From Amphiscolops sp. MND2022 (taxonomy: Eukaryota): DNA of 64,000 nt. Location of the stretch: positions 16,494,001-16,558,000 of the forward strand of contig OZ076409.1 of assembly GCA_964187785.1 (NCBI GenBank), given 5' to 3'. This document shows, piece after piece, positions 1,302 to 64,000 of the stretch (positions within the stretch are counted from its first letter, which is position 1; every line of letters begins with the position of its first letter). Under the pieces are notes generated by a model. It did not search any database and was not told where the DNA came from. It saw only the letters and a program-made list of their open reading frames with translations. A program made the position numbers and the translations under genes.

Positions 1302-1519
1302 AGCCTAATTGTTGTGATAAACTTATTAAATAGGTAAGTATTCCATTTTTGGAGTATATCTTGCCTGTTTGAGGTGTGAGTCGCAGCAATCATAGGTCCA
1401 AAACCAGTAACCAAAAACCAACCTGTACTTACTTGTTTGAAAGGTAAGTATTCCAACCCTATTGATAAGTTTTATTTGAAAGCAGACTGCGAAAGTGGTC
1501 TGCTGCCCAATTTTTGAAC
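1302..1519 (+). pseudogene. SL RNA gene interrupted by mini-element
   Basis: SL sequence split at the donor region by insertion 1346-1441. Confidence 0.75.
1346..1441 (+). mobile_element. Non-coding SL-targeted mini-element, copy 1 (divergent subtype), site 2
   Basis: 96 bp; TSD AGGTAAGTATTCCA 1332-1345/1442-1455; ends TGTTTGAA. Confidence 0.85.
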
Positions 1520-8285: not shown

Positions 8286-8970
8286 TTTTTGTCAGAAATG
8301 TGGTTTAACTTCGGTGACAGTTTTGCAAAAGGGGTCAAATTGAAAAGATAGCACAAAACGGACAACGCCATCAGAAAGAGCGTCCAAAAAAACCCCCATG
8401 CTGAAATTTTCGCCGCCATCACTTGAATTTTCATTGAGTTATGTCATTTTTACTATTTTCACAAAATGTGGTTTAACTTCGGTGACAGTTTTGCAAAAGG
8501 GGTCAAAATGAACAGATAGCAAAAAACGGACAACGGCATTGGAAAGAGGGCCCAAAATTACCCCTAAAACGTGTTTTTCACACTCCTGAGTCGACTTTTG
8601 ATAATACATGGAATTTCATTTTTAAGCTTACTAATTTATGCTTTTCAGCATACATTTTCGTAATAGAGTCAAAATTTTGCTTTCTCACAATTTTTCTGGA
8701 ATATTTTTGTTTCATCAGATGTCAATAACTTGAAACGTCGTCTTTTCATGAGAATTTCTCCTCAAAACAAGTTGTTGGCTGGTAATGGTAAGTCCGTACC
8801 GCAGATAGGAGTCTCGCGCTCCAAAAATTGACTCTTTGCTTTTAGCCTAATTGTTGTGAACAGTTGACTTTTGACTTTTGCTTTCCCTGCAAATTTTTGC
8901 TGTTGAAAATTTTGAGAGTTTTTACGAGCTTTGCTCTATTCTAACAGATTATTGGAACGACTTATTGCCA

Positions 8971-10158
8971 ATGGAAAACGACGAGGTTTGTGAGGTTAGT
9001 GGCCCTTCGACTATGGATGACAATGTTTTGAACAACGAACCTTTAAATGATAATACCTCTGCACCTTCATCTAGTTATAGTAAAGTAGCTGGATCTGGTA
9101 TTCCTCCTCCACGTTTGAAAAACATTGTTAAGATGAAAATCTTCCCACCATTTCGGAAAAAACATTTTGAAGACAAGACTGCTTTTGACCTTGCTTCTAA
9201 AGAATGTATTAAAGCCATTCTCTTGGCATTCCCCACGAATCTGAGGCCAAATTTAACAATTGCCACATCATTTACAATGAAAGCAACACGTAAAATGCAT
9301 TCTGTTGACGTTGTTGCATCTGCAGATGCATCATATTACTTCAGTAAAATACAGACAAGTGGCATAGAAATGCTTGGTTGTACGGTCTTTCCGTCTGGAG
9401 AAGATTATTGGCAAGCTTTGCCTGGGTTATATCCTAAGCAGGTCGAAATCAAATTGTTGCATGTGCCTGTTGTGTGTAACGACGCGGAATTGCTTGAATT
9501 GCTACAATTGCCGCCAAACACAGAAACCATTCGTGTGAAACATTTCACTGATGATGTTGATGGAATCCATTTTTATAATGGTAAAGCTACCATTTCGGTC
9601 AAAGCGCAATCCGCAGAGCACGAAGATCAATTGAGACAATGGTCAATCAAAAGCCATGAAGAAAAAGGTTATATTTGGGAAGGAATTCCAATTTATGCGT
9701 TTATTCCTGCCCTACATTCTTGTCCTCATTGTAAGAAAATAAAGAAACCTTTTCATGGTCATGATATTTCATGGTGTCGTTATGCAAAAGAGGCAGCCAA
9801 AACAGAGGAAGCTGTAAAAGTGGCGGCTCTTAACGACGCAGCCGAAAAAAAGGCTGCTGATAAACAACGAAATCACTCAATGAAAAAGAAAGTTACAGAA
9901 GAAAAGCATTTCACGGAAAGTGATGACATCAGTGATTCTGATCAAGAATTGGGCGTCTGTACAGGAAAAAACAGGAAACAAAATGAATCTGATTTGCCAT
10001 GGCAAGAAGTTAAAAGTAAACGGTCTCGACAACAAGAGGCTCGTAAAGAAAGAGAAAGAGAGCGCGTTGCACCCAAAAGGAAGAAATACATATTTAAGTC
10101 TGACAATTTTTTGAAAAATCCTGAAAAAAATTCAAAATCATCTTCACTTAAATCATAA
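8971..10158 (+). CDS. Family A ORF1 (putative nucleic-acid-binding protein, CCHC motif)
   Basis: First in-frame ATG at 8971 (the track start 8878 is TTG); CPHC-x9-HDISWC; basic C-terminus; similar to ORF1 of B and D. Confidence 0.85.
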   Translation: MENDEVCEVSGPSTMDDNVLNNEPLNDNTSAPSSSYSKVAGSGIPPPRLKNIVKMKIFPPFRKKHFEDKTAFDLASKECIKAILLAFPTNLRPNLTIATSFTMKATRKMHSVDVVASADASYYFSKIQTSGIEMLGCTVFPSGEDYWQALPGLYPKQVEIKLLHVPVVCNDAELLELLQLPPNTETIRVKHFTDDVDGIHFYNGKATISVKAQSAEHEDQLRQWSIKSHEEKGYIWEGIPIYAFIPALHSCPHCKKIKKPFHGHDISWCRYAKEAAKTEEAVKVAALNDAAEKKAADKQRNHSMKKKVTEEKHFTESDDISDSDQELGVCTGKNRKQNESDLPWQEVKSKRSRQQEARKERERERVAPKRKKYIFKSDNFLKNPEKNSKSSSLKS

Positions 10159-10169
10159 GCATTAATTTT

Positions 10170-13100
10170 ATGAATTTGTGTTCATTCAATTGTAGGGGAC
10201 TTAAAGATCCAAATCGGCTTAGCAAGGTAATAAGTATATGCCAAAGTTCTGGTGTTCAGTTACAGAACATGGTATTGAATATTCAAGAAACGAAAATTGA
10301 AAGCCTGACAAAAGGTCATCTCAAAATCTTAGAATACTTTGATTTGAACTATGAAATAGTCCCAGCTGTGAATCAAGCAGGTGGACTTATTACTATTTTC
10401 CCAAAGTGTTGGAGTGTCAAAAAAGTCTATAAATCAGCAGGCTTGATGTTTTTGGATTTTCAAAACGTTTTAGGACTTTTTGTGAACGTATACATAAACC
10501 CATTAGATTACTCGCTGGAACATTTCAATGTTGGTTTTTCTAAACTTGATGCAGAAAAATGTGAGAAAATATATCTTTCTGGGGACCTCAATGCTCTTGC
10601 ATCAAGGGAATGCTCCACTAACCCCAACATTATGTCCAATGACATCCGTTTGATTCGTTTTCGCAAAATTGTGATGAAATTGTTTTCAATTCATTTAAAT
10701 CATATACAACCTGCTCCTGGATCTGACATTTTTACTCATTTTGATAAACGCACAGGCTCACTGAATCAAATTGATCATTTTTTCACTACCGATTGCTCGT
10801 ACTTTTTTGATACAAAAAACATTGCTTTCAGTGATCATAGATTGCTGATTTTGAGGAATGTAGACGATAGTTTCTTTTGCCCCAGCTATTGGAAATTCAA
10901 TGACAACGTACTTCAACATCATGTTGTGATTCAAGAGATCATCCGTGCGAGTTGTAACTCTGTTGATGAGCTTGATAGCTATGACACCTCAAAAAATTTA
11001 ATTAGAGACAAACTGAGATCACTCTGTATTCAGTGCGCCCGTGTAGAAAATCATGAAGAAAGTGCAATAATAAAAGAAATTAGACAAATTGAAAACGCAA
11101 TATGTCAGGCAGGTTCCAACGAAGTTTTATTAAGACAGTTGTCTCACTTCAATAGTCAACTTTTAATGATACAAAATTTGAAAGCCAGAAAAGATTTGAG
11201 ACAAATTAAAAATTTTTTCACAGATTTTCATCATGGAGATCCTCATACAGTTAAAAAACATGTGAAACGAAAACGAATGAAATCCCGAATTACTGCAATT
11301 AAAATAAACGAATCAGAAATATCTTATGATGAGGAGAAAATTCACCAGGAGTTTGTTCATCATTTCACAGAACGTTTTTCAAAGCCTCGTCTGACACATG
11401 AACAATTTGTTCAAAGTTCTCTTTTGAAAAATCAAGCTCTTAGTGACTTCTGCTCTAAAAACACTCAAAATATTCAAGATATTAGAAATTTATGTTCAAC
11501 AAGACAGGAAATTATGGAACAAGAAGTTAAACAGGCCATTAGAAAATTGAATTCAGAAAGCGCTCCAGGCTTGGATGGTCTGACTTCAAATTTTTATAAA
11601 GCCCATGCCGATTTTTTTGTCCCTTACCTAACTAAAGTGTTCAATCTTGTGCAGAATCAACAAAGGGTTCCTGAGTCCTTTAGGAATGCCGTAGTGAAAT
11701 TTATTCCAAAAAAAGAAACATCAGATTCAGTTGAAGATTATCGTCCAATTAGCTTGATAAATACAGATCAAAAAATTCTCTCTCATGTTCTGACTGCTCG
11801 TTTGATTGATCCGCTGTCAAAAATTATAGGTGTCCATCAAAGTGCTCATCTACCCAATCGTAACATTCATTCATCACTCATGAAAATAAATCTCAATCTG
11901 GAAACACTTGAAGATTCTGACTGCTTAGTTGCAGTAGACTTTAGCAAAGCGTTTGACAGGATTGATCGACGTTTTCTTTTTTTATTGCTCCAAGCAATAG
12001 GAATAGACGATATTACTTTGAAGTTAATCAAGGCTATGTATGAAAAAACAATAGCTTTTCTAGACATAAATGGATATCTTTCAACACCAGTGCAAATGGA
12101 AAACGGAGTCAGGCAAGGTTGTCCAATGTCAGCCCTTTTGTTTGATCTAGGTGTAGAACCTGTTTTACAATGTATTCGAGACTCTAATACTATTCTTTCA
12201 AACTCAATTTTCAAGGTAATTGCCTATGCGGATGATTTAACATGCTGCATTAAAAAGGAATCTTTTGATCAACTGATGGACACTTTGAATTGGTTTTCTC
12301 AAATAACTAATCTCGTTCTTAATCATGCTAAAACTGAGATTCTCTGTCCTTCACAGTTTGACAATGGGATCACAACTAAAGAGACTGCAAAAATTTTGGG
12401 TGTCACTTTCGAAGTGGGAAATCCTAAGATTGATATGTCTTCAATGACTTCCTATGCTGAAAAATCTCGCTTCTTCTGCAACAAATTCAATACGTTTGTT
12501 GCTCGTGCGAAAAATATTGACACTTTTGTAATGCAAAAACTTATTCATCAAGTTAGGCACAAAACTGCACTCAAACGACAGTTAGAAACTTTGGACAACA
12601 TCTTTGTTGATTCAATTTGGTTGGGACGAAAGCACAACCTGAAAAAATCGGTGCTTCAAAAATCTTGGTCAGCAATGGGAATAGCGCTGAAAAACTTCAC
12701 CAAAACTATTACATCGTCAAAAATAATTGACTTGAAAAATTTTTTAGGAGAAGATTTGACTGGGTCATTTTTTGAAATGTATCGTAAAACTTCGCATTAC
12801 AAAAATCTAATTAATCTAGTAAGGACTTTCAATTGCACGCTTCATATTAATCAAGGGAATCAGATCCACTTACTTAAAGGAGAAGAGATTAAAGATTTGA
12901 CTTTGTCAATGCGCACGAAAGAAATCTACAAGTTTCTTTCGGACTCAGATAATTCGGACGCTCTTCAGCGGATAACGAAAATTTCTTCGAAAATTTGCTA
13001 TCCCCCCGAACACATTTATACCTTCATTCGCCAACTTTGGAAACACCCAAGTTATGCTGCGTTTGAGAAGAACTATTTATATCAATTCCTAATGAATTGT

Positions 13101-13403
13101 TATCTAGATAAACCCAAAAAATGTGAACTTGGATGGGTTTTTGATTGTTTCTGTTGCTTTTGTGGATCAGCTGAGGAATCCCATAGTCATCTTTTGTTTG
13201 AATGTACAAATGTGCCTAACTTGAATTTTTTTCAAGTGACACAATCAATAAACTTGAGTTTTTTAGACCCAGGGGACATATATCCATTTAAAAGACTGAT
13301 TGCTCTGCTTTTGTCGTCTTGGAGTGGAGATAGCTCCAAGTTCCAGAAATATTTCCTTGATTGCATAAATCTCAGGAACCCTTCCCACTTCAATTCTCTG
13401 TAA
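10170..13403 (+). CDS. Family A ORF2: APE endonuclease + reverse transcriptase + C-terminal CCHC
   Basis: FNCRGL, IQETK, GDLN, SDH; APGLDG, RPISLINTDQKI, DFSKAFD, GVRQGCP, YADD; CCFC-x8-H-x4-C. Confidence 0.97.
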   Translation: MNLCSFNCRGLKDPNRLSKVISICQSSGVQLQNMVLNIQETKIESLTKGHLKILEYFDLNYEIVPAVNQAGGLITIFPKCWSVKKVYKSAGLMFLDFQNVLGLFVNVYINPLDYSLEHFNVGFSKLDAEKCEKIYLSGDLNALASRECSTNPNIMSNDIRLIRFRKIVMKLFSIHLNHIQPAPGSDIFTHFDKRTGSLNQIDHFFTTDCSYFFDTKNIAFSDHRLLILRNVDDSFFCPSYWKFNDNVLQHHVVIQEIIRASCNSVDELDSYDTSKNLIRDKLRSLCIQCARVENHEESAIIKEIRQIENAICQAGSNEVLLRQLSHFNSQLLMIQNLKARKDLRQIKNFFTDFHHGDPHTVKKHVKRKRMKSRITAIKINESEISYDEEKIHQEFVHHFTERFSKPRLTHEQFVQSSLLKNQALSDFCSKNTQNIQDIRNLCSTRQEIMEQEVKQAIRKLNSESAPGLDGLTSNFYKAHADFFVPYLTKVFNLVQNQQRVPESFRNAVVKFIPKKETSDSVEDYRPISLINTDQKILSHVLTARLIDPLSKIIGVHQSAHLPNRNIHSSLMKINLNLETLEDSDCLVAVDFSKAFDRIDRRFLFLLLQAIGIDDITLKLIKAMYEKTIAFLDINGYLSTPVQMENGVRQGCPMSALLFDLGVEPVLQCIRDSNTILSNSIFKVIAYADDLTCCIKKESFDQLMDTLNWFSQITNLVLNHAKTEILCPSQFDNGITTKETAKILGVTFEVGNPKIDMSSMTSYAEKSRFFCNKFNTFVARAKNIDTFVMQKLIHQVRHKTALKRQLETLDNIFVDSIWLGRKHNLKKSVLQKSWSAMGIALKNFTKTITSSKIIDLKNFLGEDLTGSFFEMYRKTSHYKNLINLVRTFNCTLHINQGNQIHLLKGEEIKDLTLSMRTKEIYKFLSDSDNSDALQRITKISSKICYPPEHIYTFIRQLWKHPSYAAFEKNYLYQFLMNCYLDKPKKCELGWVFDCFCCFCGSAEESHSHLLFECTNVPNLNFFQVTQSINLSFLDPGDIYPFKRLIALLLSSWSGDSSKFQKYFLDCINLRNPSHFNSL

Positions 13404-13563
13404 CGAAACGTCTTTGATGATATGTTGAATATCATGGTAATACCACTGAAATTCTGTACGATTTAACATTAAACATGAAACATTGTATTGGCTGATGGTT
13501 GTAATGATTGTTCTTATTGAAAGTTGATTGATGAAAAATTGACTCGTAAATATAGTCTTTGAA

Positions 13564-13672
13564 AGCCTAATTGTTGTGATAAACTTATTAAATAGGTAAG
13601 TATTCCAACCCTATTGATAAGTTTTATTTGAAAGCAGACTGCGAAAGTGGTCTGCTGCCCAATTTTTTGAAC
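13564..13672 (+). ncRNA. Complete SL RNA sequence regenerated by the TSD downstream of element A (native upstream region displaced)
   Basis: Full SL sequence begins directly after the element 3' end. Confidence 0.75.
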
Positions 13673-13791: not shown

Positions 13792-13910
13792 GGCTACGAC
13801 CATACCATGTTGAATGCACCGGTTCTCGTCCGATCACCGAAGTTAAACAACATAGGGCCTGGTTAGTACTTGGATGGGAGACCGCTTGGGAACACCAGGT
13901 GTTGTAGCCT
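13792..13910 (+). rRNA. 5S rRNA
   Basis: Copy of 625-743. Confidence 0.98.
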
Positions 13911-19898: not shown

Positions 19899-20137
19899 AG
19901 CCTAATTGTTGTGATAAACTTATTAAATAGGTAAGTATTCCAACCTCGGAATATTTCTTGCCTGTTTGAGGTGTTAATCACACATACTTATCAATAGGGC
20001 CCAAAAGCCAGTAACCAAAAACCAGTAACCAATAACCAACCTGTACTTACTGTTTGAAAGGTAAGTATTCCAACCCTATTGATAAGTTTTATTTGAAAGC
20101 AGACTGCGAAAGTGGTCTGCTGCCCAATTTTTCGAAC
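19899..20137 (+). pseudogene. SL RNA gene interrupted by mini-element
   Basis: Split by 19946-20058. Confidence 0.75.
19946..20058 (+). mobile_element. Non-coding SL-targeted mini-element, copy 2, site 2
   Basis: 113 bp; 17-bp TSD AGGTAAGTATTCCAACC 19929-19945/20059-20075. Confidence 0.88.
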
Positions 20138-21280: not shown

Positions 21281-21862
21281 TTTTTGTCAGAAATGTGGTT
21301 TAACTTCGGTGACAGTTTTGCAAAAGGGGTCAAATTGAAAAGATAGCAAAAAACGGACAACGCCATTAGAAAGAGCGTCCAAAAAAACCCCCATGCTGAA
21401 ATTTTCGCCGCCATCACTTGAATTTTCATTGAGTTATGTCATTTTTACTATTTTCACAAAATGTGGTTTAACTTCGGTGACAGTTTTGCAAAAGGGGTCA
21501 AAATGAACAGATAGCAAAAAACGGACAACGGCATTGGAAAGAGGGCCCAAAATTACCCCTAAAACGTGTTTTTCACACTCCTGAGTCGACTTTTGATAAT
21601 ACATGGAATTTCATTTTTAAGCTTACTAATTTATGCTTTTCAGCATACATTTTCGTAATAGAGTCAAAATTTTGCTTTCTCACAATTTTTCTGGAATATT
21701 TTTGTTTCATCAGATGTCAATAACTTGAAACGTCGTCTTTTCATGAGAATTTCTCCTCAAAACAAGTTGTTGGCTGGTAATGGTAAGTCCGTACCGCAGA
21801 TAGGAGTCTCGCGCTCCAAAAATTGACTCTTTGCTTTTAGCCTAATTGTTGTGAAAGCTTTG

Positions 21863-22056
21863 ATCCCTGAAGTCTGAGCCCTAGCCCCTTCAGTGGAACA
21901 GTTGACACCTCAAATAGTATAGAAGCCACTGCGCCAGCTGTGATTTCTCTAGATCCCTGAAGTCGAGCCCTAGCCCCTGAGGTGGATCGAGAAATCAAAG
22001 CTGAGGGAGAAACTGGCTGTATCCCTGAAGTCGAGCCCTAGCCCCTTCAGTGCGAT
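21863..22056 (+). repeat. Three ~35-bp direct repeats in the family B 5' UTR
   Basis: ATCCCTGAAGTC(T)GAGCCCTAGCCCCT at 21863, 21953 and 22021. Confidence 0.9.
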
Positions 22057-22118
22057 CGTTGGTGGAGACCCCCGCTTTTTGCAACTTTTTTCACCCGCTT
22101 TTTTCATAAAACCTCAAA

Positions 22119-23540
22119 ATGCCTCCTAAAAACTTCCTAGAAACAGCCTCTAGCAAAAAGAAATTTGAATCTTATAAACAAGGATCGAGAAGAAACTCAA
22201 CATCAAATCTAACATCAAACATACCCAACCCTGAAGGTAAATATATCGGACCAGCTGAACGAAATCGTCTTTTGAAAGAAAAGGAAGAAGAAGAACAGAG
22301 AAGACTGAAGATTGACAAGATGATTGAAGATACAAGGGAAGAATTTCCACCGATAGAAAGTTCCAGCAAACCACAATCACCACAGCCTAAAAGCCAACAA
22401 CAGGATGAAATACAAAACGAACAACGCCCAAAACAACAGCAGCCTCAACCTCAGCCCGACATTAGTAACAGTCAAAACAGCTACAGTAATGTGGTCTGTA
22501 ATCAAAAAAACGTAGTCGTAAACAAAATCTTCCGGTTGAAAATTGTACCTCCTTTTCGCAAAGAACATTTCGAAAACAAAAATACCCTCGAAACTGAGAT
22601 AGCAAAAGCTTATGCTGAAATCCTAAAACCATTCAAACCTCAAGTGCGAATGTACATTACAATTTCGAGAACTTTTGAAGAAAAATGGGGAAAAAGACTT
22701 CACATTTTACATGTAATTGCCCCTGAAGAAGCGGAAGAAGACATCGAAAACATTAAAACTAAAGGTTTACAAATAATGGGCAGAACAGTATTTCCAACTG
22801 GAGACGATTTTTACCAAGTTCGTAACAGTCAATTTCCCCGGAAAGTGTGGGTAAAGATTAACAATTTGCCGTTTCTTTGCAGCGATGAAGTTTTACTCAG
22901 TCTACTAGACCTCCCAGAAGGAGTTGAGATTAGTGAAAATGTAACAAGAGAAACGATACAAACTGAAAATGGCACCATCCACAACGGAAAGGCTAAACTG
23001 TCAGTTGTGGTACCAGACAGTGAAAAACTCAAAGAACTCAAACAGTGGTCTTTGGAGAAAAGTCACATTTGCGTCACAAAATGGTTCGAAATTCCGATTT
23101 ATATGTCGACCCCAAGCCTGCACAAATGTGACGCTTGTGAAAAAGAAAATCGGAAATCGTACATTGGCCACGACATAGCGTGGTGCAGGGTCTTAAGGAA
23201 ACCTGAAAAAACTGAGGAAGCTCCCGAAAGCTGCCAAGAAGAAACAGCGGACGAATCACAAGCTGAACAAGAAAACGAAGTATGGGCTGACGCACCAACA
23301 AAATCCTTCCCAATTACAAACAAAAAGAACAAGAAAAGAGCGAAGTCGAAATCTAAAGAGACCACCAGCCCTGGATTGATGCAGCAGAATAAATTTCAGC
23401 TTCTTTCTACATCCAGTGACCAACCTGAAGCAATTCTAAGCGCAACGTCAACAATACAAAACCAGCCACAAAATCCAAAGAACCCGCAGCACCCCGAAAC
23501 GCCCTGTGAAGCACCCCTGGAAAGAAGCGACAATGGATGA
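22119..23540 (+). CDS. Family B ORF1
   Basis: 473 aa; KIVPPF, GRTVFP and CDAC-x10-HDIAWC motifs shared with A and D ORF1. Confidence 0.88.
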   Translation: MPPKNFLETASSKKKFESYKQGSRRNSTSNLTSNIPNPEGKYIGPAERNRLLKEKEEEEQRRLKIDKMIEDTREEFPPIESSSKPQSPQPKSQQQDEIQNEQRPKQQQPQPQPDISNSQNSYSNVVCNQKNVVVNKIFRLKIVPPFRKEHFENKNTLETEIAKAYAEILKPFKPQVRMYITISRTFEEKWGKRLHILHVIAPEEAEEDIENIKTKGLQIMGRTVFPTGDDFYQVRNSQFPRKVWVKINNLPFLCSDEVLLSLLDLPEGVEISENVTRETIQTENGTIHNGKAKLSVVVPDSEKLKELKQWSLEKSHICVTKWFEIPIYMSTPSLHKCDACEKENRKSYIGHDIAWCRVLRKPEKTEEAPESCQEETADESQAEQENEVWADAPTKSFPITNKKNKKRAKSKSKETTSPGLMQQNKFQLLSTSSDQPEAILSATSTIQNQPQNPKNPQHPETPCEAPLERSDNG

Positions 23541-26500
23541 AGAAATAGAAATTTTTTCAATTAATGCTAGAGGGTTAGCCTCAAATAAATCAAAATTAAT
23601 TGAGATTTGCAACATTGTTAAGAAAAATAAAAAACATGAAACATTTTATGTACTGATACAAGAAACTAAGCTGGAAAAAATGAAACCGGAACTTCTTAAA
23701 ATAATTCAATATAACAATTTGTCTTTTCAAATAGTTCCCTCAGAAAATAAAAGTGGAGGTCTAATGATACTTTATGATAAAAACACCGAAATAGAATTAC
23801 TTGACAAGAACCAATGTTCCCTAACAATTCGAGACAAAAAATCGGATTCAATAATTATAAATACTTATATAAATCCAAAACAGTACAATTTTCAGCCTCT
23901 CAAAGATACTATTGAAACACTAGAACTAACATCGGATCAAACTATTTATATGGGAGGTGATTTCAATGCCATCGATCCTTCAGATATCAATGAAGAAAAC
24001 AAAACGTTCAATATGACTGTAAAACCAAATGATATTCGACTATTGCGATCCAAAAAACTAATACATTTGAACTCAAGTCTCCTTCTGATAGATCTTGCGC
24101 AACTCTTACAGAATCGCCAACCGACGCATTTTGAAACACGGTCTGGAAAACAAAGCCGCATCGATTATATTTTTAGTAATAACCAAAATCTCACCATCGA
24201 AAAAAACAGGATCGAAACATTGCCCTTTGCTTTTTCGGATCACAAATGCCTCCACCTTTTTAGAAATAGCAACTATCAGTATTCTCAAAAACTTTGGAAG
24301 CTCGATAACATTGTATTTAAATATCCGGAGAAAGTGAAAGAAATACTAGAAACATCTAAAGTCGCATCCGAAAAATTTGGGAACATTGTGTCTTGTCATG
24401 ATATCTTTAAAGCGAAAACAAGAGATCAACTAAAATACCTTAGTGCTACAAGCAAAAAGATGCTAGTGAAACAAAAAGAAAAAGTTCAGATGGATATTGA
24501 AAAACTTGAAGAAAATTGTTCTAAGGGAAATTGTTCTGACCAACAGATCAAACAGAACTTAGAGCACCTGACATGCCTCAAAAATAATCTTCAATTGATC
24601 AAAAATGAAGAATCTGAAAATTCAATTCAACAAATCAAAAACTTCTTTAGGGAAGCCAATGATGGAAACACAAAAAATATCAAATGCTTAGCGAAAGCCT
24701 CAAGCTTAGCTAAGGATATCAAAAAGATTGAAAAACAAGATGGATCATTCACAGAAGATCCTGACGAAATTTTAAATGAATTCAAATCTTTTTATGAGAA
24801 ATTTAGCCAACCAAAATGGAAACCAACAGAAACATCCTCGAAATCTCAGGATAAATTCATTGAAAAGTTTTTTAAACAAAAAAGGAAAAGCATTGAAAAC
24901 ATTGAACAATTGTTCAAAGAAACGTTGGAGGACCCCGACAACGAAATCACAGTATATGAAGTTGAAAAAGCTATCTCTAAACTGAACTCAAACAGTGCTC
25001 CTGGATCCGATGGACTTACAAGTCAATTATACCAAAACCACAAAAACTTTTTTGCCCCGTATCTTTCAAATCTATTTAATAAAATCAATGAAAATGGAGA
25101 AGTTCCGGACTCATTTAAACATGCAATCATCAAAGTAATTCCTAAGAAAAATAATTCACTGAAGGTATCCGAATTTCGGCCAATTAGTCTCATTAATACG
25201 GATCAAAAAATTCTTTCTCATGTTCTAGCAGAAAGACTCAAACCTATTTTATCAGTATTAATTGGTAATCATCAAAACGCTCATTTACCAAATAGAAATA
25301 TACATATTGCCATACAAAAAATTCAGCATTACGCCCATGAAACTACTCGTAGTCAATCACTTATCGCTATTGACTTCAGTAAAGCTTTCGACTGTGTAGA
25401 GCGTAGCTTTTTACAAAAACTGATTGAAAAATGTCCAATCGATAAGTTTACTCAAGAAATGATTTTACTTACGTACAAGGATACTTATGCTTTCATTGGA
25501 ATGAAAAATGGAATTTCCACAAAATTCAAAATAGATAGAGGGGTGAGACAAGGCTGTCCTCTCTCAGCATTGATTTTCAATATTTGTCTTGAACCTCTTC
25601 TATAAAGAATTCAAAAATCAAAATACATAAAATCAAAACAACAAACAAAATGTATTGCCTACGCAGATGATATAACGATCAGCCTCTACAACAAATCTCT
25701 TCGGAAGCTATTGATTATTCTGGATCATTTTCACGAAATAGCAGGCTTAGAAGTTAATTTAGCCAAAACTGAAATCCTTTCGAAAGCGGACAAATTATTT
25801 GTATCGGAAAAACTAACAAGAGTTACCACAACAAAAATTCTTGGAGTTTACATTTCGCTGAATAAAACTCTCAAAAAAGAAACCAAGAACGCAATAACGA
25901 ATGCTTTTAACTCAACAGAAAAGTTCATACTAAAAAATAGTTCGTTCCGTGCGAGAGCTAGAAATATTGAGACTTTTATCTACTCGAAATTAATTCATCA
26001 TCTGAGACACGAAAATTTGTATAAAAAATTTCTTCGAAAAGTTCAATCGAAAATAATAGATGTTTTCTGGCTGTACAAAAAACACAATGTTAAAAAAGAA
26101 ATTCTTGAGCTACCAATTGAAGAGGGCGGAGTAAACCTCAAGAACTTCTCCAAATACTACCTAACTGCCAAGATTATGAACTTGAAGTTCCTAGCGGTTA
26201 ACCCAAAGGAGAGAAAATACATACAAGAATTAAAGAAATCAAAATTTTTTTCAGAATTAGAAAAACACTTCGAAAAACAACACATTGAAATCCTAGAACT
26301 GAACCCAGAAGAACTTATAATCCAACATCATTTCACTACGCTTAATATAACAAAAGAGACAACTTCGAAAGAAATTTATACTTTTTTGAACAACTCCTCA
26401 ATAAACGTCCCACCGCCTCTAAAAACTGAAGTTACTGCAACAAAACAAAATATAGCACCCGAAATTTTGAACTCAGTTACAAAGAACATCTGGAAAAACA

Positions 26501-26859
26501 AAAAACTCACTTCGTTTGATAAAAACTATCTTTACTGCTTCCTAATGAATTCGTATCTAGATAAACAAGACAAGTGGCTTAAAAATCTTGTTCTCCAACC
26601 ACTATGTTTCGCATGTGAAGCAGAATTTGAAACATGGGACCATTTAATGTTTTCTTGTAAAAATTTGAAAACGTTAACATTGAAGTTGAACGTTTTTTCA
26701 TGGAAGGAAATATGGCTTGATCGAAGTTGTCTCTCTCAAAAACTCCTTGTAGCAATAATGCTCTCGTCGTGGACAGAATCAATTGGAGACTACTTAAAAT
26801 ATTTTCTGGAACGTATGAAAGTAATACTAATACCAGTTGCAAATCTATCTGATAATTGA
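23533..26859 (+). pseudogene. Family B ORF2 (APE-RT-CCHC) with premature TAA at 25603-25605
   Basis: ATG 23533 (MDEEIEIFSINARGL). The frame continues past the TAA as RIQKSK...CIAYADD and into the 25711-26859 ORF (same frame). Confidence 0.9.
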
Positions 26860-26951
26860 TGATATGATGCAATTCTGATCTAATGAATTCCAGGTTGATC
26901 TTTTGTAAAAAAAAAGGGTTGATATTATTCATGATTAATTGAAGTTTTGAA

Positions 26952-30571: not shown

Positions 30572-30810
30572 AGCCTAATTGTTGTGATAAACTTATTAAA
30601 TAGGTAAGTATTCCAACCTTGGAATATTTCTTGCCTGTTTGAGGTGTGAATCACACTCACTTATCAATAGGGCCCAAAAGCCAGTAACCAATAACCAGTA
30701 ACCAATAACCAACCTGTACTTACTGTTTGAAAGGTAAGTATTCCAACCCTATTGATAAGTTTTATTTGAAAGCAGACTGCGAAAGTGGTCTGCTGCCCAA
30801 TTTTTTGAAC
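30572..30810 (+). pseudogene. SL RNA gene interrupted by mini-element
   Basis: Split by 30619-30731. Confidence 0.75.
30619..30731 (+). mobile_element. Non-coding SL-targeted mini-element, copy 3, site 2
   Basis: 113 bp; 17-bp TSD 30602-30618/30732-30748; several substitutions versus copy 2. Confidence 0.88.
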
Positions 30811-35266: not shown

Positions 35267-35670
35267 TTTCCAACCCAAGTCCTTTTAATAAGTTTGCTTG
35301 TACATCATTCGGTTAAGCAACCCATAGCTCTGTGCTATCATTCAAACTACCATTTTACAAACCCGTCGTGAAGCACCTAAGAAGCCATTCTTTCCTACGG
35401 GGGTCGCTGGCTAAGGTTTGATCTGCGTGGATATTTTTCCAACCGGCTCGTGTGTGGTCGCGTTAGTAGATCAAGCTGAGAAACCGAGACTGGTGCTTCC
35501 CAGCGTATTCGTGAGGTTGCGCTGAAGCTTTCTTGGCGGTCGGCTGGCAGGAGCCCTCAATAAACTGCCAGTTGTCCCAGCAGAGCTCTTCACAGCTGGC
35601 AGTGATAGATGCTCTGTTTCCCCCTAAAAACAAAACAACTCTTTCCCTTTTATTTCAACTGAACTGAAGA

Positions 35671-36867
35671 ATGGATTACGCAGCAGCAGCAGCAAAATCA
35701 AGCGAAACAACAGAAGACTACCTCCCCCCACTTCTGTTTGTACTTCCAATCACTAAAGAAGACTTCAACACTCCGAACGGAATTATTGACATCTTCGTTA
35801 AACTCTGTACGACACTCTTAGCAAAACTACCATGTGAGGCAAGAACGAAAACGGTCATCCAACGAGTAACATACGGGTTCAAGAAATTGAAGGCAGTCAA
35901 AGTAAACTTGCCAACTTCTTGTCAGAACGTTCAAAACGAAATGCTCGGCATGGGGCTAGAATGTGGGAACAAAACGGTATGGCCGGTGCGAGACGACCGA
36001 ACCTACAGATTCTACCCGTGCAATGTCAGCATCAAGATTCAAAATGCCCTGCCCAATCTGACCAACGAAGAAATCAAGAACGAACTGAAACTACCCGAAG
36101 GCATTACTGCGAACGACGACTTGAACTTCAAAACAGTCAGCATTGGGCCGTACATGAAAGTCTTTGATGGAACAGCGACAATCTCTGCCACTGTTCAATC
36201 TGCCGAGCAAATGGAAGAAATGAAAAACTGGTCGCGCAAATCTTTCTTTGAAGAAAAACAAGTTAGAAATCAAGTGACTCAGATGTATGCTCCTAACATC
36301 ATGACATGTACTTTCTGTGAAAAGAAAGGCTCCTTCTACAGAGGTCATGATGACACTTGGTGCACAAAGAAAACGAAAGAAGAACGCGAACTGGAAAAAA
36401 AAGCGAAGGCGATCGAAGACGAAGGCGACGTCTTCACAGCCGACGAACAAAGTGTACACAACGAACAAATCGCAAAAATTAGAAACGACAGCTGTGCATC
36501 AACATCAAGCAGAAATAATAAAAGACGACGCAGCACACCAAAGCGCGCCAACTCGGAAAAAAACCCACGACTCAGTGCGAGACAGCGAACCAGCCAAATA
36601 CCAAAGATGAAAGCAAAAGCTCAAAATGAGAACAAACCCGAACAGAAAGAAAGTACAAGTCAAACTGCAAACAACAACAGTGATAACAATGACGAGAATG
36701 AAGAACAAGATACCACAAGCACGAAGAACGCAGATACCGAAAACAGATTGCCGAAACCGCTGAACATGAGAGATTTTGTGGATGCAATGAATCCAATCCA
36801 TCACATAGAAACAAATGAAACAACAAACAACAACGTCAACGAAACAAACAATACGAAGACGAAATGA
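35671..36867 (+). CDS. Family C ORF1
   Basis: 398 aa; GNKTVWP and CTFC-x9-HDDTWC; stop overlaps the ORF2 start (ATGA). Confidence 0.88.
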   Translation: MDYAAAAAKSSETTEDYLPPLLFVLPITKEDFNTPNGIIDIFVKLCTTLLAKLPCEARTKTVIQRVTYGFKKLKAVKVNLPTSCQNVQNEMLGMGLECGNKTVWPVRDDRTYRFYPCNVSIKIQNALPNLTNEEIKNELKLPEGITANDDLNFKTVSIGPYMKVFDGTATISATVQSAEQMEEMKNWSRKSFFEEKQVRNQVTQMYAPNIMTCTFCEKKGSFYRGHDDTWCTKKTKEERELEKKAKAIEDEGDVFTADEQSVHNEQIAKIRNDSCASTSSRNNKRRRSTPKRANSEKNPRLSARQRTSQIPKMKAKAQNENKPEQKESTSQTANNNSDNNDENEEQDTTSTKNADTENRLPKPLNMRDFVDAMNPIHHIETNETTNNNVNETNNTKTK

Positions 36868-39800
36868 CGACGCCCAACATTGTTAGTTTCAATTGTAGGG
36901 GTCTTGGCAATCCCTTGAAACTCACAAGCCTAATTGCAAACACTGACATCAACAATGACGTCATTGCAATTCAAGAAACTAAAATGAAAAAACTAAAGAA
37001 AAAACATTTGAAAATACTCGAGTCCTACGACCTGAATTACGTAATCAGCCCATGCGACAAATCAAAAGCGGGCGGCCTGCTGCTTTTGTTCAAAGCAAAA
37101 CATAACGTAGAGTTGGTTACCCAAAACAAGTCTTTTCAAATTATAAAGATGTCAAACCAAGCCATTGAAACAAAGATGGCCAATGTTTACATATGCCCCA
37201 GCTGGAGTATAAGCAAAATCAATGAAGAACTTGAAGACCTGAAACTCAACTTGGAATCAAAGCATCTCAGGCATATTGAACCATGTGTAATAGTTGGTGA
37301 CTTGAATTGTTTCGATGACGTCACAAGAAACAAACATCCTCAATATGCAAAACACAAAGTTATACTGAAAGCGTTTGAAAAAATGGGCTTGATGGACATG
37401 GCAGTGAAGCTTGAGAATATCGAGAACACACACTTCGCGCCAGCCCAAAAACCATCGCGCCTGGATTATATCTTCTCAAATGTTGTGAGTCAGAAACAAG
37501 AAATCAGAACGATCAAGACATGCTTCTCAGATCACCGAATTTTGCGCCTGTCAAGCAAGCATAAGGCCGAGCAAGGTCAAAAGATCTTTAGAATGGATGA
37601 CACAACTGTTGATGAAAACGTCAAAACCCTGAAAACGCTGATTTCACAAACAAATGGCTTGACCGGTGAACAGCTAGCGAATGATGCGTATCTCACAATG
37701 AAAAATGAAATTTCCAACTTTCTAAGACAGGCTAGCATATGGAGAGCAAGAAATAACAAAGACAGACTGCTCAAAGGGCCCGACGCAGAAGCTGAGCAGA
37801 ATCTTGCAAAAAGAATGCTAGCAGCAGTGAAGGTCAAATGCACTGACCTGAATGAAGGAAACTTGAAGATTGTTAAAAAGTACTGCTCTGACAATGCAAA
37901 CAACCAAAGCAACGCGATCAAGAAGCTGAAAACACAGAAAGATCGAATTATCTCAAGTGAGAATGAGATCATAGATGAAGTTACAAAGTACTACAGTAAG
38001 CTCTACGCCAACGAAACAATTGATGAGAAGAAACAAGAGTGCCTCATCACAAACTTCAAAAAACAGATCTCTGAAGATGAAAGAGAACGTCTAACTCAGC
38101 AAATCACCCTAGACGAAATCAAAAATGCGATTGACAATCTGAACAAAGAAAGCGCGCCAGGCCCAGATGGACTCACCCCAAAACTGTTTCAAACGTTCAA
38201 GGAAGAATTCAGTCTTATGTTTCAAAAGATGTTTGAACATGCTGCAGACGGTAACAACTTACCAATGGCATTCAACCAAGCCTTCATTAGACTACTTCCG
38301 AAAAGTGGTGATCTGACAACATTGAAGAACTGGAGACCAATAAGCCTGATCAACACTGACAGCAAGATTTTTTCAGCAGTAATTGCAAACCGAATGAAAA
38401 GTAGCCTCCGCGAAATCATCCACCCAGATCAATGCGCATATTTGAAAGGCAGACAAATGTCAAACGCCACACTGCTACTAAAATCTCTGTGCACAAACAA
38501 AAGAATGAAAAAAACTTTGACACTAGCTGGACTCGACTTCAGCAAAGCCTTCGACAGGGTAGATCGTTCGTACTTGCTGAAACTTATAAAACATGTGGGA
38601 TTCCCTCCCAACATATACAACATGATAGAGCAACTGTACAAAGATACACGATCTAACGTTCTAGTCAACTCCTTCATCACAAGACGAATACAGCAAGAAA
38701 GAGGAGTGAAACAAGGCTGCCCAGTCTCAGCTCTTTTGTTCATCCTAGCTATTGAGCCATTGCTTGAACTACTGAGATCGTCATCGAGCCTGACTGGAAT
38801 CGCAAAAGGAAAATTGAAGAAAAAAATCATTGCATATGCTGATGACGTCACAATGTTAGTTGAGAATGAAGAACAACTGAAGCAAGCAATTCAAACGGTT
38901 GAAGACTTTGGCAAAAGCACCCAATTCGCCTTGAACGCTGACAAAACGGAACAGTTTGACCTGAACCGAAGAAATGTAGATCAAAAGATCAAACTCCTCG
39001 GTTTGTATTTGTTCAGCAACCAAAAATGTGAAAAGCAGCACTACCAGCAACAACTGATCCAAGAAAGCGAAAGAGCAAAGAAAGTGTGTAGACCATCAAT
39101 GTCGATGAAAACTAAAAGTTGCGTCATGAAAGCCTTCGTAATGCCAAAAATAGTGTTTCATGCGAAAGCCTCAAACTGTGATCGAGCAACTTGGAAAAAA
39201 GTTCAACGAAACCTAAAACAAGGACTTCACAACAATAGGAGCAATCAGATTTCAGAACGCCTTCTTTTCCAAAGCACCAATGAAGGCGGTGTTGGCTTCC
39301 CATGCGTGAAGACCTATGCAAGCACTTCTTTTCTGATGGATGTGTGGAGAGCAGTGTTCCACAATGACGATCACTTTATTGCACTCGAAATCAAAGAAGC
39401 AGTAGAAGACGAGAAAAGTTACGTTCACAGCAAACTGAAACAAATGAAAACGATAACGAAAGCGCGAGCGATAACTTTCAAGCGAGAACACATAGAGTTT
39501 GTGACAAGTGAAGGACCAACAAAAATGCCTGCTACTTCAAAAGCAATATACGCCTTTGCAATCCGCCGACAGCATGCAGACTTCGTAGATGAAAGAATCA
39601 TGAAAGCGGGATCAAAACTTCAAACAGCACCCCAACAACTTCTGTACACACTCAAAGCAATTTGGAGAAGCAACAAACTGAACCCTGTTCAACGAGACGT
39701 CTTCTATAATTTCAGTTTCAATCTTTACCGAGACAAAGTATTCCTCCATGCAGCTGGCTACAAGTCTGATGATGACTGTTTCCTTTGCGGAGCAAGTAAA

Positions 39801-40031
39801 CAAACACATGAGCATCTGATCCTAGATTGTCAAAAAACAAAGCAGATTGCTGAAACCCTTGGAATTCGCAGCATGAAAGATCTGTACCAGCAGGCAGAAC
39901 AAGACACATGGAAAAAAGTGAGATTCGTAACAACTCTGCTCATATGTTCATGGACCGACAACAAGAAAGAAGTGGAACAAATGATTCACAACTTTCCCAT
40001 CACTACCAAGCAAGTTGGCACAGTGGCTTAG
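36864..40031 (+). CDS. Family C ORF2: APE endonuclease + RT + CCHC
   Basis: FNCRGL, IQETK, GDLN, SRLDY, SDH; APGPDG, WRPISLINTDSKI, DFSKAFDRV, GVKQGCP, YADD; CFLC-x8-H-x4-C. Confidence 0.97.
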   Translation: MTTPNIVSFNCRGLGNPLKLTSLIANTDINNDVIAIQETKMKKLKKKHLKILESYDLNYVISPCDKSKAGGLLLLFKAKHNVELVTQNKSFQIIKMSNQAIETKMANVYICPSWSISKINEELEDLKLNLESKHLRHIEPCVIVGDLNCFDDVTRNKHPQYAKHKVILKAFEKMGLMDMAVKLENIENTHFAPAQKPSRLDYIFSNVVSQKQEIRTIKTCFSDHRILRLSSKHKAEQGQKIFRMDDTTVDENVKTLKTLISQTNGLTGEQLANDAYLTMKNEISNFLRQASIWRARNNKDRLLKGPDAEAEQNLAKRMLAAVKVKCTDLNEGNLKIVKKYCSDNANNQSNAIKKLKTQKDRIISSENEIIDEVTKYYSKLYANETIDEKKQECLITNFKKQISEDERERLTQQITLDEIKNAIDNLNKESAPGPDGLTPKLFQTFKEEFSLMFQKMFEHAADGNNLPMAFNQAFIRLLPKSGDLTTLKNWRPISLINTDSKIFSAVIANRMKSSLREIIHPDQCAYLKGRQMSNATLLLKSLCTNKRMKKTLTLAGLDFSKAFDRVDRSYLLKLIKHVGFPPNIYNMIEQLYKDTRSNVLVNSFITRRIQQERGVKQGCPVSALLFILAIEPLLELLRSSSSLTGIAKGKLKKKIIAYADDVTMLVENEEQLKQAIQTVEDFGKSTQFALNADKTEQFDLNRRNVDQKIKLLGLYLFSNQKCEKQHYQQQLIQESERAKKVCRPSMSMKTKSCVMKAFVMPKIVFHAKASNCDRATWKKVQRNLKQGLHNNRSNQISERLLFQSTNEGGVGFPCVKTYASTSFLMDVWRAVFHNDDHFIALEIKEAVEDEKSYVHSKLKQMKTITKARAITFKREHIEFVTSEGPTKMPATSKAIYAFAIRRQHADFVDERIMKAGSKLQTAPQQLLYTLKAIWRSNKLNPVQRDVFYNFSFNLYRDKVFLHAAGYKSDDDCFLCGASKQTHEHLILDCQKTKQIAETLGIRSMKDLYQQAEQDTWKKVRFVTTLLICSWTDNKKEVEQMIHNFPITTKQVGTVA

Positions 40032-40320
40032 CCAAAGACCATGAGTCAAACAAACGAGGTTCGAACCTCTGACGGAACCAAGACACAAACATGAAAAAAA
40101 CTCTTTTACCTTATTGTTTGAAAGGTAAGTATTCCAACCCTATTGATAAGTTTTATTTGAAAGCAGACTGCGAAAGTGGTCTGCTGCCCAATTTTTTGAA
40201 CAAGGAACAAGCTAGTCTGCACTAACTTAAAAGTTACGCGTATTTTGACCGAGAAAATTTTCGTATCATTGTACGTAATTTTGTTGTTAAGCATATAAAG
40301 CTATTGATTTTACAATGATC

Positions 40321-43754: not shown

Positions 43755-44118
43755 ATTCGGTTATGCAACCCATAGCTCTGTGCTATCATTCAAACTACCA
43801 TTTTACAAACCCGTCGTGAAGCACCTAAGAAGCCATTCTTTCCTACGGGGGTCGCTGGCTAAGGTTTGATCTGCGTGGATATTTTTCCAACCGGCTCGTG
43901 TGTGGTCGCGTTAGTAGATCAAGCTGAGAAACCGAGACTGGTGCTTCCCAGCGTATTCGTGAGGTTGCGCTGAAGCTTTCTTGGCGGTCGGCTGGCAGGA
44001 GCCCTCAATAAACTGCCAGTTGTCCCAGCAGAGCTCTTCACAGCTGGCAGTGATAGATGCTCTGTTTCCCCCTAAAAACAAAACAACTCTTTCCCTTTTA
44101 TTTCAACTGAACTGAAGA

Positions 44119-45312
44119 ATGGATTACGCAGCAGCAGCAAAATCAAGCGAAACAACTAAAGACTACCTCCCCCCACTTCTGTTTGTACTTCCAATCACTA
44201 AAGAAGATTTCAACACGCCGAACGGAATTACTGACATCTTCGTTAAACTCTGTACGACACTCTTAGCAAAACTACCATGTGAGGCTAGAACGAAAACGGT
44301 CATCCAACGAGTATTATACGGATTCAAGAAATTGAAGGCAGTCAAAGTAAACTTGCCAACTTCATGTCAAAACGTACAAAACGAAATGCTCGGCATGGGG
44401 CTAGAATGTGGGAACAAAACGGTATGGCCGGTGCGAGACGACCGAACCTACAGATTCTACCCGTGCAATGTCAGCATCAAGATTCAAAATGCCCTGCCCA
44501 ATCTGACTAACGAAGAAATCAAGAACGAACTGAAACTACCCGAAGGCATTACTGCGAACGACGACTTGAACTTCAAAACAGTCAGCATTGGGCCGTACAT
44601 GAAAGTCTTTGATGGAACAGCGACAATCTCTGCCACTGTTCAATCTGCCGAGCAAATGGAAGAAATGAAAAACTGGTCGCGCAAATCTTTCTTTGAAGAA
44701 AAACAAGTTAGAAATCAAGTGACTCAGATGTATGCTCCTAACATCATGACATGTACTTTCTGTGAAAAGAAAGGCTCCTTCTACAGAGGTCATGATGACA
44801 CTTGGTGCACAAAGAAAACGAAAGAAGAACGCGAACTGGAAAAAAAAGCGAAGGCGATCGAAGACGAAGGCGACGTCTTCACAGCCGACGAACAAAGTGT
44901 ACACAACGAACAAATCGCAAAAATCAGAAACGACAGCTGTGCATCAACATCAAGCAGAAATAATAAAAGACGACGCAGCACACCAAAGCGCGCCAACTCG
45001 GAAAAAAACCCACGACTCAGTGCGAGACAGCGAACCAGCCAAATACCAAAGATGAAAGCAAAAGCTCAAAATGAGAACAAACCCGAACAGAAAGAAAGTA
45101 CAAGTCAAACTGCAAACAACAACAGTGATAACAATGACGAGAATGAAGAACAAGATACCACAAGCACGAAGAACGCAGATACCGAAAACAGATTGCCGAA
45201 ACCGCTGAACATGAGAGATTTTGTGGATGCAATGAATCCAATCCATCACATAGAAACAAATGAAACAACAAACAACAACGTCAACGAAACAAACAATACG
45301 AAGACGAAATGA
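44119..45312 (+). CDS. Family C ORF1 (copy 2)
   Basis: 397 aa, nearly identical to 35671-36867. Confidence 0.88.
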   Translation: MDYAAAAKSSETTKDYLPPLLFVLPITKEDFNTPNGITDIFVKLCTTLLAKLPCEARTKTVIQRVLYGFKKLKAVKVNLPTSCQNVQNEMLGMGLECGNKTVWPVRDDRTYRFYPCNVSIKIQNALPNLTNEEIKNELKLPEGITANDDLNFKTVSIGPYMKVFDGTATISATVQSAEQMEEMKNWSRKSFFEEKQVRNQVTQMYAPNIMTCTFCEKKGSFYRGHDDTWCTKKTKEERELEKKAKAIEDEGDVFTADEQSVHNEQIAKIRNDSCASTSSRNNKRRRSTPKRANSEKNPRLSARQRTSQIPKMKAKAQNENKPEQKESTSQTANNNSDNNDENEEQDTTSTKNADTENRLPKPLNMRDFVDAMNPIHHIETNETTNNNVNETNNTKTK

Positions 45313-48300: not shown

Positions 48301-48475
48301 CCTTGGAATTCGCAGCATGAAAGATCTGTACCAGCAGGCAGAACAAGACACATGGAAAAAAGTGAGATACGTAACAACTCTGCTCATATGTTCATGGACC
48401 GACAACAAGCAAGAAGTGGAACAAATGATTCACAACTTTCCCATCACTACCAAGCAAGTTGGCACAGTGGCTTAG
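45309..48475 (+). pseudogene. Family C ORF2 (copy 2) with a 1-nt deletion frameshift near 47414-47418
   Basis: C1 CGAAGAAATGTAGAT versus C2 CGAAAAATGAAGAT; the remainder continues in ORF 47447-48475; could be a homopolymer error. Confidence 0.85.
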
Positions 48476-48764
48476 CCAAAGACCATGAGTCAAACAAACG
48501 AGGTTCGAACCTCTGACGGAACCAAGACACAAACATGAAAAAAACTCTTTTACCTTATTGTTTGAAAGGTAAGTATTCCAACCCTATTGATAAGTTTTAT
48601 TTGAAAGCAGACTGCGAAAGTGGTCTGCTGCCCAATTTTTTGAACAAGGAACAAGCTAGTCTGCACTAACTTAAAAGTTACGCGTATTTTGACCGAGAAA
48701 ATTTTCGTATCATTGTACGTAATTTTGTTGTTAAGCATATAAAGCTATTGATTTTACAATGATC

Positions 48765-50346: not shown

Positions 50347-50569
50347 AGCCTAATTGTTGTGATAAACTTATTAAATAGGTAAGTATTTCTTGCCTGTTTG
50401 AGGTGTTAATCACACATACTTATCAATAGGGCCCAAAAGCCAGTAACCAAAAACCAGTAACCAATAACCAACCTGTACTTACTGTTTGAAAGGTAAGTAT
50501 TCCAACCCTATTGATAAGTTTTATTTGAAAGCAGACTGCGAAAGTGGTCTGCTGCCCAATTTTTTGAAC
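50347..50569 (+). pseudogene. SL RNA gene interrupted by mini-element
   Basis: Split by 50388-50490. Confidence 0.75.
50388..50490 (+). mobile_element. Non-coding SL-targeted mini-element, copy 4 (5'-shortened), site 2
   Basis: 103 bp; TSD AGGTAAGTATT 50377-50387/50491-50501 with TATT microhomology at the 5' junction; body matches copy 2. Confidence 0.88.
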
Positions 50570-54427: not shown

Positions 54428-55216
54428 TTTTTGTCAGAAATGTGGTTTAACTTCGGTGACAGTTTTGCAAAAGGGGTCAAATTGAAAAGATAGCAAAAAA
54501 CGGACAACGCCATTAGAAAGAGCGTCCAAAAAAACCCCCATGCTGAAATTTTCGCCGCCATCACTTGAATTTTCATTGAGTTATGTCATTTTTACTATTT
54601 TCACAAAATGTGGTTTAACTTCGGTGACAGTTTTGCAAAAGGGGTCAAAATGAACAGATAGCAAAAAACGGACAACGGCATTGGAAAGAGGGCCCAAAAT
54701 TACCCCTAAAACGTGTTTTTCACACTCCTGAGTCGACTTTTGATAATACATGGAATTTCATTTTTAAGCTTACTAATTTATGCTTTTCAGCATACATTTT
54801 CGTAATAGAGTCAAAATTTTGCTTTCTCACAATTTTTCTGGAATATTTTTGTTTCATCAGATGTCAATAACTTGAAACGTCGTCTTTTCATGAGAATTTC
54901 TCCTCAAAACAAGTTGTTGGCTGGTAATGGTAAGTCCGTACCGCAGATAGGAGTCTCGCGCTCCAAAAATTGACTCTTTGCTTTTAGCCTAATTGTTGTT
55001 CACGCGTCGGTTGGTTAGTTATCTTTGACTTTTGACTTCTGATTGTGAAAAACTTTTTTGACGAGTTTTTAACACATAGTACCGCTAAAACTATAGAAGT
55101 TTAACGAAAAAATTGTTTATTTGGGTTTATACCCCTTTGCACTTTACCCCCTCTGGGTTTATACCCCCCCCTTGGGTTTATACTCCCTTTTGGATAGAGG
55201 ATAGGAAAACGACTTC

Positions 55217-59780: not shown

Positions 59781-59932
59781 CTAAGTTCAATTTTATTTAT
59801 ATCTTGCAACCAATGAACCATTCACTTACTTTGATTAGCTACTGAATTGTCTGAATTATGAACTTGGTCATGACCTACGCTATTTGATTGATTCATTTGT
59901 TCCTACTGATTTACTGTAATTAATTCTTTAAA

Positions 59933-63594: not shown

Positions 63595-64000
63595 GGTATG
63601 GCCGGTGCGAGACGACCGAACCTACAGATTCTACCCGTGCAATGTCAGCATCAAGATTCAAAATGCCCTGCCCAATCTGACTAACGAAGAAATCAAGAAC
63701 GAACTGAAACTACCCGAAGGCATTACTGCGAACGACGACTTGAACTTCAAAACAGTCAGCATTGGGCCGTACATGAAAGTCTTTGATGGAACAGCGACAA
63801 TCTCTGCCACTGTTCAATCTGCCGAGCAAATGGAAGAAATGAAAAACTGGTCGCGCAAATCTTTCTTTGAAGAAAAACAAGTTAGAAATCAAGTGACTCA
63901 GATGTATGCTCCTAACATCATGACATGTACTTTCTGTGAAAAGAAAGGCTCCTTCTACAGAGGTCATGATGACACTTGGTGCACAAAGAAAACGAAAGAA
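63595..64000 (+). mobile_element. Family C copy 3, 5'-truncated within ORF1, SL site 2; runs off the window
   Basis: Starts GGTATGGCCGGTGCG (= C1 ~35976); carries the C2-type CTGACTAAC variant. Confidence 0.93.

Follow-up and report, generated by a model that had tools for sequence, protein, structure and literature searches.

Apparent spliced-leader-gene-specific APE-type non-LTR retrotransposons in an SL/5S gene array of Amphiscolops sp.

Introduction

In trypanosomatids, retrotransposons of the CRE clade (SLACS, CZAR, CRE1 and CRE2) occupy arrays of spliced leader (SL) RNA genes and, like the elements described here, insert close to the 5' end of the gene. Transcription of SLACS reportedly starts at +1 of the SL gene into which the element has inserted. 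Passages of PMC5814959 place the insertion of SLACS and CZAR between nucleotides 11 and 12 of the mini-exon, and passages of PMC12278014 describe the clade as making target duplications and ascribe to it an RLE endonuclease, a poly(A) tail and, in most cases, a single ORF. Unlike CRE elements, those of the locus described below carry an APE endonuclease and two ORFs, are tail-less, have a duplication that starts at +1 and reside in an animal host. NeSL of nematodes, as presented in passages of PMC4640811, is also specific for spliced leader genes and also found in an animal, but is of the RLE type with a Ulp1-like protease and has a separate origin.

The Tx1 clade is also APE-type and also takes multicopy small-RNA targets; Keno (U2), families specific for U5 and 5S, Kibi, Koshi and Tx1-Mar are covered in passages of PMC4494074, which name no SL-specific member. 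The families described here differ from the named Tx1 elements in using two sites 30 nt apart and in lacking poly(A) tails, and they form a clade of their own in a tree without named references. R1Bm, SART1 and R2 rely on pairing between template and target for exact priming (passages of PMC7265360) and on transcription from the host gene (passages of PMC4494074), both of them probable here too, but they belong to other clades and have other targets (28S rDNA, telomeres).

In passages of the acoel genome preprint and paper and of PMC4494074, PMC4640811, PMC5814959, PMC12278014, PMC8869645, PMC4721609, PMC7265360, PMC3649969, PMC3273796 and PMC9326685, SL-specific elements were reported only as RLE types (CRE, NeSL), and no APE-type SL-specific element was found in the literature, the search being one outside subscription journals and Repbase. 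The new part of the present analysis is the targeting of SL genes by an APE-type lineage. In a basal animal, an APE-type radiation on SL genes would amount to SL targeting arrived at independently.

The array and the SL RNA gene

The window (the whole stretch of DNA analysed, 64,000 nt) is a head-to-tail array of 904–905-bp units, each with an SL RNA gene and a 5S gene. It holds 42 5S rRNA genes and 46 SL RNA gene starts, the latter counted in a 10-mer search (48 matches, 2 of them within elements). An assembly gap of 200 N lies within the array at 2458–2657.

The SL exon was identical at 31 of 32 nt to the published leader of the acoel Symsagittifera roscoffensis, as given in passages of the acoel genome preprint and the G3 paper, a match that points to an acoel host; the published form is without the first A and starts with GCC, which corresponds to position 8845, one base past the inferred +1. 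Since that leader was, according to the same passages, reconstructed from transcript 5' ends, SL +1 was taken as 8844 or 8845. The 109-nt SL RNA has two predicted stem-loops (z −4.07), an AG|GU donor at +32/+33, in stem-loop I, and an Sm-like site at +98 to +106. The Sm-like site was present in 36 of the 42 SL copies examined, and a one-base variant in the other 6; by sequence type, 27 copies have six U, 9 have five U and 6 have a U>C change. The sequence TTTGAAAG forms SL +58 to +68 in every unit, and the same letters span 8 of the 9 element 3' junctions.

The elements

The features of the interrupted unit that holds element A were as follows.

8724..8843, + strand: native upstream flank of the SL gene; matches the array unit and probably holds an snRNA-type promoter
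8844..8859, + strand: 5' target duplication of A, equal to SL nt 1–16, without the donor
8860..13563, + strand: element A, a tail-less non-LTR retrotransposon of the APE type (no poly(A)), with TTTGAA as its last letters
8939..8947, + strand: weak acceptor-like site (pyrimidine-rich, CAG), 23 nt upstream of ORF1 of A
8971..10158, + strand: ORF1 of A, 395 aa, with a CX2CX9HX4C-type motif and no Pfam match
10170..13403, + strand: ORF2 of A, 1077 aa, intact, with APE motifs (QET, GDLN, SDH), RT (YADD) and a C-terminal zinc motif
13534..13545, + strand: 12-nt match in the 3' UTR of A to the native SL flank at −21 to −10 (0/1000 shuffles, spotted post hoc)
13564..13672, + strand: SL RNA sequence after A, complete, promoterless; exon 13564–13595, donor GT 13596–13597
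within 13564..13672, + strand: 3' parts of this SL RNA, with two stem-loops and an Sm-like site at 13661–13669
13792..13910, + strand: 5S rRNA gene of the unit holding the SL sequence downstream of A

The other long insertions were the following.

21855..26951, + strand: element B, site 1, duplication of 16 nt, ORF2 interrupted by an in-frame stop at codon 691
55000..59932, + strand: element D, site 1, duplication of 14 nt, ORFs intact
35277..40122 (start perhaps 35267), + strand: element C1, site 2, 5' end like SL +39 to +61
43755..48566, + strand: element C2, site 2, frameshift in ORF2
63595..64000, + strand: C3, 5'-truncated copy of C, continuing past the window end

By their sequences, A, B and D belong to the APE-type non-LTR retrotransposons (L1 group, Tx1-like), and they are apparently specific for SL genes. 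An ORF1 and an ORF2 with N-terminal APE, RT and a C-terminal zinc motif gave the layout of the L1 group; Pfam matched the APE domain in B, C and D, and in A it was recognized by motifs alone. A C-terminal RLE without APE, the hallmark of CRE and NeSL, was absent, and N-terminal APE motifs were found instead. A profile made from 36 family proteins matched human L1 ORF2p with an E value of 2.6e-139 and R2 with one of 2.4e-56. Sequence-specific insertion into a multicopy target, a Tx1 trait, was present within the window.

ORF2 identity was 46% between A and D, 34% between A and B, 33% between B and D, and 25% for C against A and D. With identities of 25–46% and two sites 30 nt apart, the four families are a natural set for mapping endonuclease specificity; A, B and D share a similar endonuclease loop and C has a shorter one, a split that fits the two insertion sites. 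A search with the RT region of A returned 923 matches, 120 of them listed. A FastTree phylogeny was made of 105 RT sequences, namely the listed matches with at least 800 aa, 11 loci and families A, B, C and D of the window. It placed these four families inside one clade of 46 with a support of 0.993; the tree is without any named reference, so that "Tx1" denotes likeness only.

The 12-nt flank match of A sits 9 nt further from +1 than in the native flank and is absent in B, C and D; it could be a partial repair of the downstream SL gene, or chance. Resemblances of the 5' UTR of A and the 3' UTR of D to the SL locus (4/300 and 2/300 shuffles, in 20 tests) were rejected as AT-rich noise. A sigma-70 scan was set aside as irrelevant for this host.

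Insertion at two sites

The array is broken by 10 insertions (A, B, D, C1, C2, C3 and S1–S4). At A, the native flank and SL 1–16 precede the insert and SL restarts at +1 (13564); at B, SL 1–16 (21839–21854) is followed by the insert and by a restart at +1 (26952), and at D, SL 1–14 (54986–54999) by the insert and a restart at +1 (59933). This agrees with the earlier note, which had described, for these three elements, a target duplication starting at SL +1 (the inferred +1 being within 1 nt of that of the published leader), a native flank with 14–16 nt of leader and no donor on the upstream side, and a full SL sequence downstream. The downstream copies differed from an uninterrupted copy at 0 of 131 positions and all three include the Sm-like site at +98 to +106, and their own upstream flank is gone. 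The site-1 families have one copy each in the window.

SL restarts at +31 (site 2) after C1, C2 and S1–S4, and C3 leaves the window. All 9 of the 3' junctions in the window thus lie at two positions of the 905-bp unit (+1 three times, +31 six times), which excludes chance placement. The same junctions are exact and tail-less (9/9), eight ending in TTTGAA and one in TTTAAA, and none bears the poly(A) or simple-repeat tail usual for the L1 group (0/9). Target duplications measured 14–16 nt at site 1 and 11–18 nt at site 2, so that all 10 insertions fall within 11–18 nt (C3 from its 5' side alone); microhomology leaves the end of each duplication uncertain by one or two bases. The bottom strand reads CT/A at both sites, and L1-type endonucleases cut at a T/A step. 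All six long insertions have the same orientation as the SL gene.

The first 14–16 nt of the leader had been regarded in the earlier note as captured by the elements. Duplications at site 2 are alike in size, and the leader piece is simply the target duplication expected from ordinary target-primed geometry.

Transcription and priming

The reading that we favour as probable is one of APE-type, SL-specific elements that nick at +1 or +31, use the SL promoter and are primed by read-through RNA. The endonuclease would nick the bottom strand at CT/A, right at SL +1, and for C and the short inserts at the equivalent CT/A step, at +31. A second-strand cut 11–18 nt downstream would then give the target duplication and would automatically leave a near-complete target 3' of the element. 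Pol II would transcribe from the upstream SL promoter, giving an element RNA that starts with SL nt 1–16, and this tail-less RNA would continue into the downstream SL sequence. As has been proposed for R1Bm, the first read-through nucleotides may pair with the nicked bottom strand and so let reverse transcription start precisely at the junction; the Sm site would be carried along without being needed. Passages of PMC7265360 state that accurate reverse transcription by R1Bm needs downstream target sequence, and transcription from flanking target genes is discussed in passages of PMC4494074.

That A, B and D are transcribed from the captured SL promoter is plausible and, in our view, somewhat likely. 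It is favoured by the common sense of the long insertions, by the short and AT-rich 5' UTR of A and by the lack of a ribozyme match, and weakened by the 5' UTR repeats of B and D and by the failure of site-1 5' ends to pair with the leader. The use of read-through SL sequence as a priming tail may be held about equally likely, by analogy with R1Bm; RNA of this kind, pairing with the nicked strand, would most simply explain tail-less and exact junctions. Transcription of elements that target snRNA genes or are headed by snRNA sequence is named an open question in passages of PMC4494074. A read across the junction of SL 1–16 and the element could not stem from normal trans-splicing, which makes transcription testable in existing RNA data.

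No ribozyme was found in A, B and D by Rfam, and no HDV-like ribozyme by a descriptor of our own, run without a positive control; R2, for comparison, has a ribozyme. Pairing of the 5' ends of A, B and D with the leader was not beyond chance (52/500 shuffles at best), and neither, despite the look by eye, was that of their 3' ends with the downstream target (p 0.42–0.75). The corresponding values for 3'-end pairing with the downstream leader were about 0.2 for C and about 0.01 for the short inserts.

Elements with internal promoters and 3' ends of their own would also give this layout, which would then be a mere side effect of an endonuclease that recognises a conserved multicopy sequence. Three 26-nt tandem repeats and 50% GC in the 5' UTR of B, and three 18-nt tandem repeats in that of D, could be internal promoters; an ATTAAA lies 95 nt upstream of the end of A, and the lack of pairing between the target and either end of A, B and D is as this explanation would have it. 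However, the 5' UTR of A is just 111 nt long, with 34% GC, AWTAAA is absent from the last 500 nt of B and D, and both the tail-less junctions and the common sense of the six long insertions speak against it. We regard it as unlikely.

Relatives in other small-RNA genes

One locus search gave 80 loci from 224 matches; a second, taking the best 80 among 201 matches, gave 77. The relatives in these loci were distant (at most 34% identity), and the SL of this window occurred in none of the loci found. An Rfam scan of 17 of the 157 loci placed distant relatives in U1/U2/5S, U5 and tRNA arrays.

Upstream of the U1-targeting copies, the flank is followed by U1 nt 1–12 to 1–19, and their 3' junctions restart at U1 +3 in 5 of 5 cases, all from one assembly, so that the hosts are not independent. 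These APE-type elements at U1 snRNA +3 (L111, 2184–7724; L115, 3094–8633; L110, L100 and L125) sit in a U1/U2/5S array whose contig is animal DNA filed in a bacterial MAG. The 3' UTRs of 3 of 4 U1 elements contain CATTGCACT. This is the U1 loop II sequence (U1A site). Passages of PMC4640811 (2015) give Dada alone as a U1-specific element. Related elements were also seen in U5 (L104, L106, L109), U2 (L087) and tRNA (L094) arrays, on bacterial MAG contigs that look like animal host DNA. The U2 copy restarts at U2 +38/39, the Keno/Utopia site according to passages of the literature; in the tree without named references, this Keno-like copy lay outside the RT clade of the window families.

Layouts in which the promoter and a short stretch of the gene precede the element, and almost the whole small RNA follows it, are thus a recurrent outcome when an snRNA-type gene is nicked close to its 5' end, and not an SL-specific device.

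The earlier note had further read the retained Sm site as a possible means of snRNP-style nuclear import, and the element RNA as having no donor. The former claim is not supported, as the Sm site lies downstream of both insertion sites, its presence being therefore no sign of selection for site 1, and as the U1, U2 and U5 relatives also insert into the 5' part of the gene. The latter is correct for the 5' end and fails for the read-through RNA, where the SL at site 1 is predicted to fold natively, with a donor pairing profile equal to that of free SL RNA. The downstream donor is predicted to be left unmasked by A, B and D and partly masked by C1.

These observations bear on a stronger form of the same idea, in which the element RNA would be a giant SL snRNP, made from the SL promoter, ending in the SL 3' end, Sm-loaded, TMG-capped and imported as an snRNP, with site 1 kept by selection. 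The unchanged downstream SL, with its native predicted fold in the read-through context, and the retention of site 1 by three families only 33–46% identical are compatible with it, and long Sm-bound RNAs exist, such as yeast telomerase RNA. TMG capping and import, however, follow Sm assembly and not the promoter. The 3' part of the small RNA is found downstream at both sites and also in the U1, U2 and U5 relatives, relatives that target U2 and U5 terminate in poly(A), and the predicted pairing of the Sm site is higher in the read-through context than in SL RNA on its own. The read-through RNA would have an exposed 3' donor, moreover, and trans-splicing there would strip the Sm site. Such a giant snRNP appears very improbable.

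Short inserts at site 2

Four short insertions were found at site 2.

1346..1441, + strand: S1, whose 5' arm copies SL +3 to +45 in inverted, A>G-rich form
19946..20058, + strand: S2
30619..30731, + strand: S3
50388..50490, + strand: S4

All are non-coding, with duplications of 11–17 nt, and are probably a non-autonomous family mobilised by C. S2–S4 are 96–100% identical, hence of one origin and not independent of each other. The first 35–50 nt of each insert are an inverted SL exon with donor, which pairs with the upstream SL copy; folding back on the upstream SL exon, at 40 nt, was matched in 0 of 500 shuffles for each of the four. The arms also pair with the downstream donor, and those of S2–S4 with downstream SL +46 to +59 as well, so that both donors are predicted to be masked (pairing of at least 0.94 at 47 of 48 donor positions).

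Transitions that give G-U pairs on the SL-sense strand outnumbered those that do so on the opposite strand by 8 to 0 in S1 (A>G, p 0.004), 5 to 1 in S2, 4 to 0 in S3 and 5 to 0 in S4, with 4–6 transversions in each insert; singly, the wobble bias was not significant in S2 and S3 (p 0.11 and 0.06). Either selection acting on the fold or A-to-I editing would account for the bias, and both need an RNA that includes the SL exon (in S1, back to +3). Of all the observations, the fold of the short inserts therefore points most clearly to co-transcription with the SL exon, indicated here for site 2 from the DNA letters. The inversion may reach, weakly, a few bases upstream of +1, which allows for an origin at the DNA level.

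The masking of both donors suggests that donors are a liability, and trans-splicing a hazard that such parasites have to manage. Trans-splicing might also act on the long elements, in a way compatible with the promoter and read-through model: the 5' piece would be an outron swapped for a full SL at an acceptor ahead of ORF1, to give the translated form, or the read-through SL would donate the whole element as a giant leader, or both, and the element would be limited thereby. Acceptor-like sites are found close to ORF1 in A (the CAG listed above) and in D (a TAG 19 nt before it), and the exposed downstream donor as well as the donor masking of the short inserts agree with this view. Yet each kb of element body holds 1–6 acceptor-like sites (about 2 in A), B is without one within 60 nt of ORF1, and the donor-masking arm is absent in A, B and D. 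Processing of this kind seems rather unlikely.

It is improbable, too, that the lineage as a whole mimics the SL snRNP, with site-1 elements made as 5-kb SL RNAs, from the SL promoter and with the 5' end and the Sm-bearing 3' end of SL RNA, gaining Sm and TMG and re-entering the nucleus, and with short inserts hiding their donors from trans-splicing. If it did so, the snRNP route would perhaps also lead back to the SL gene array.

At its 5' end, C1 has a 12-nt stretch that is perfectly complementary to the exon upstream. The start of this element (35267–35295) is a diverged copy of SL +39 to +61 that re-forms stem I together with that exon; the mismatch at +39 is unique to C1 among the SL copies, and the true duplication of C1 may be 8 nt.
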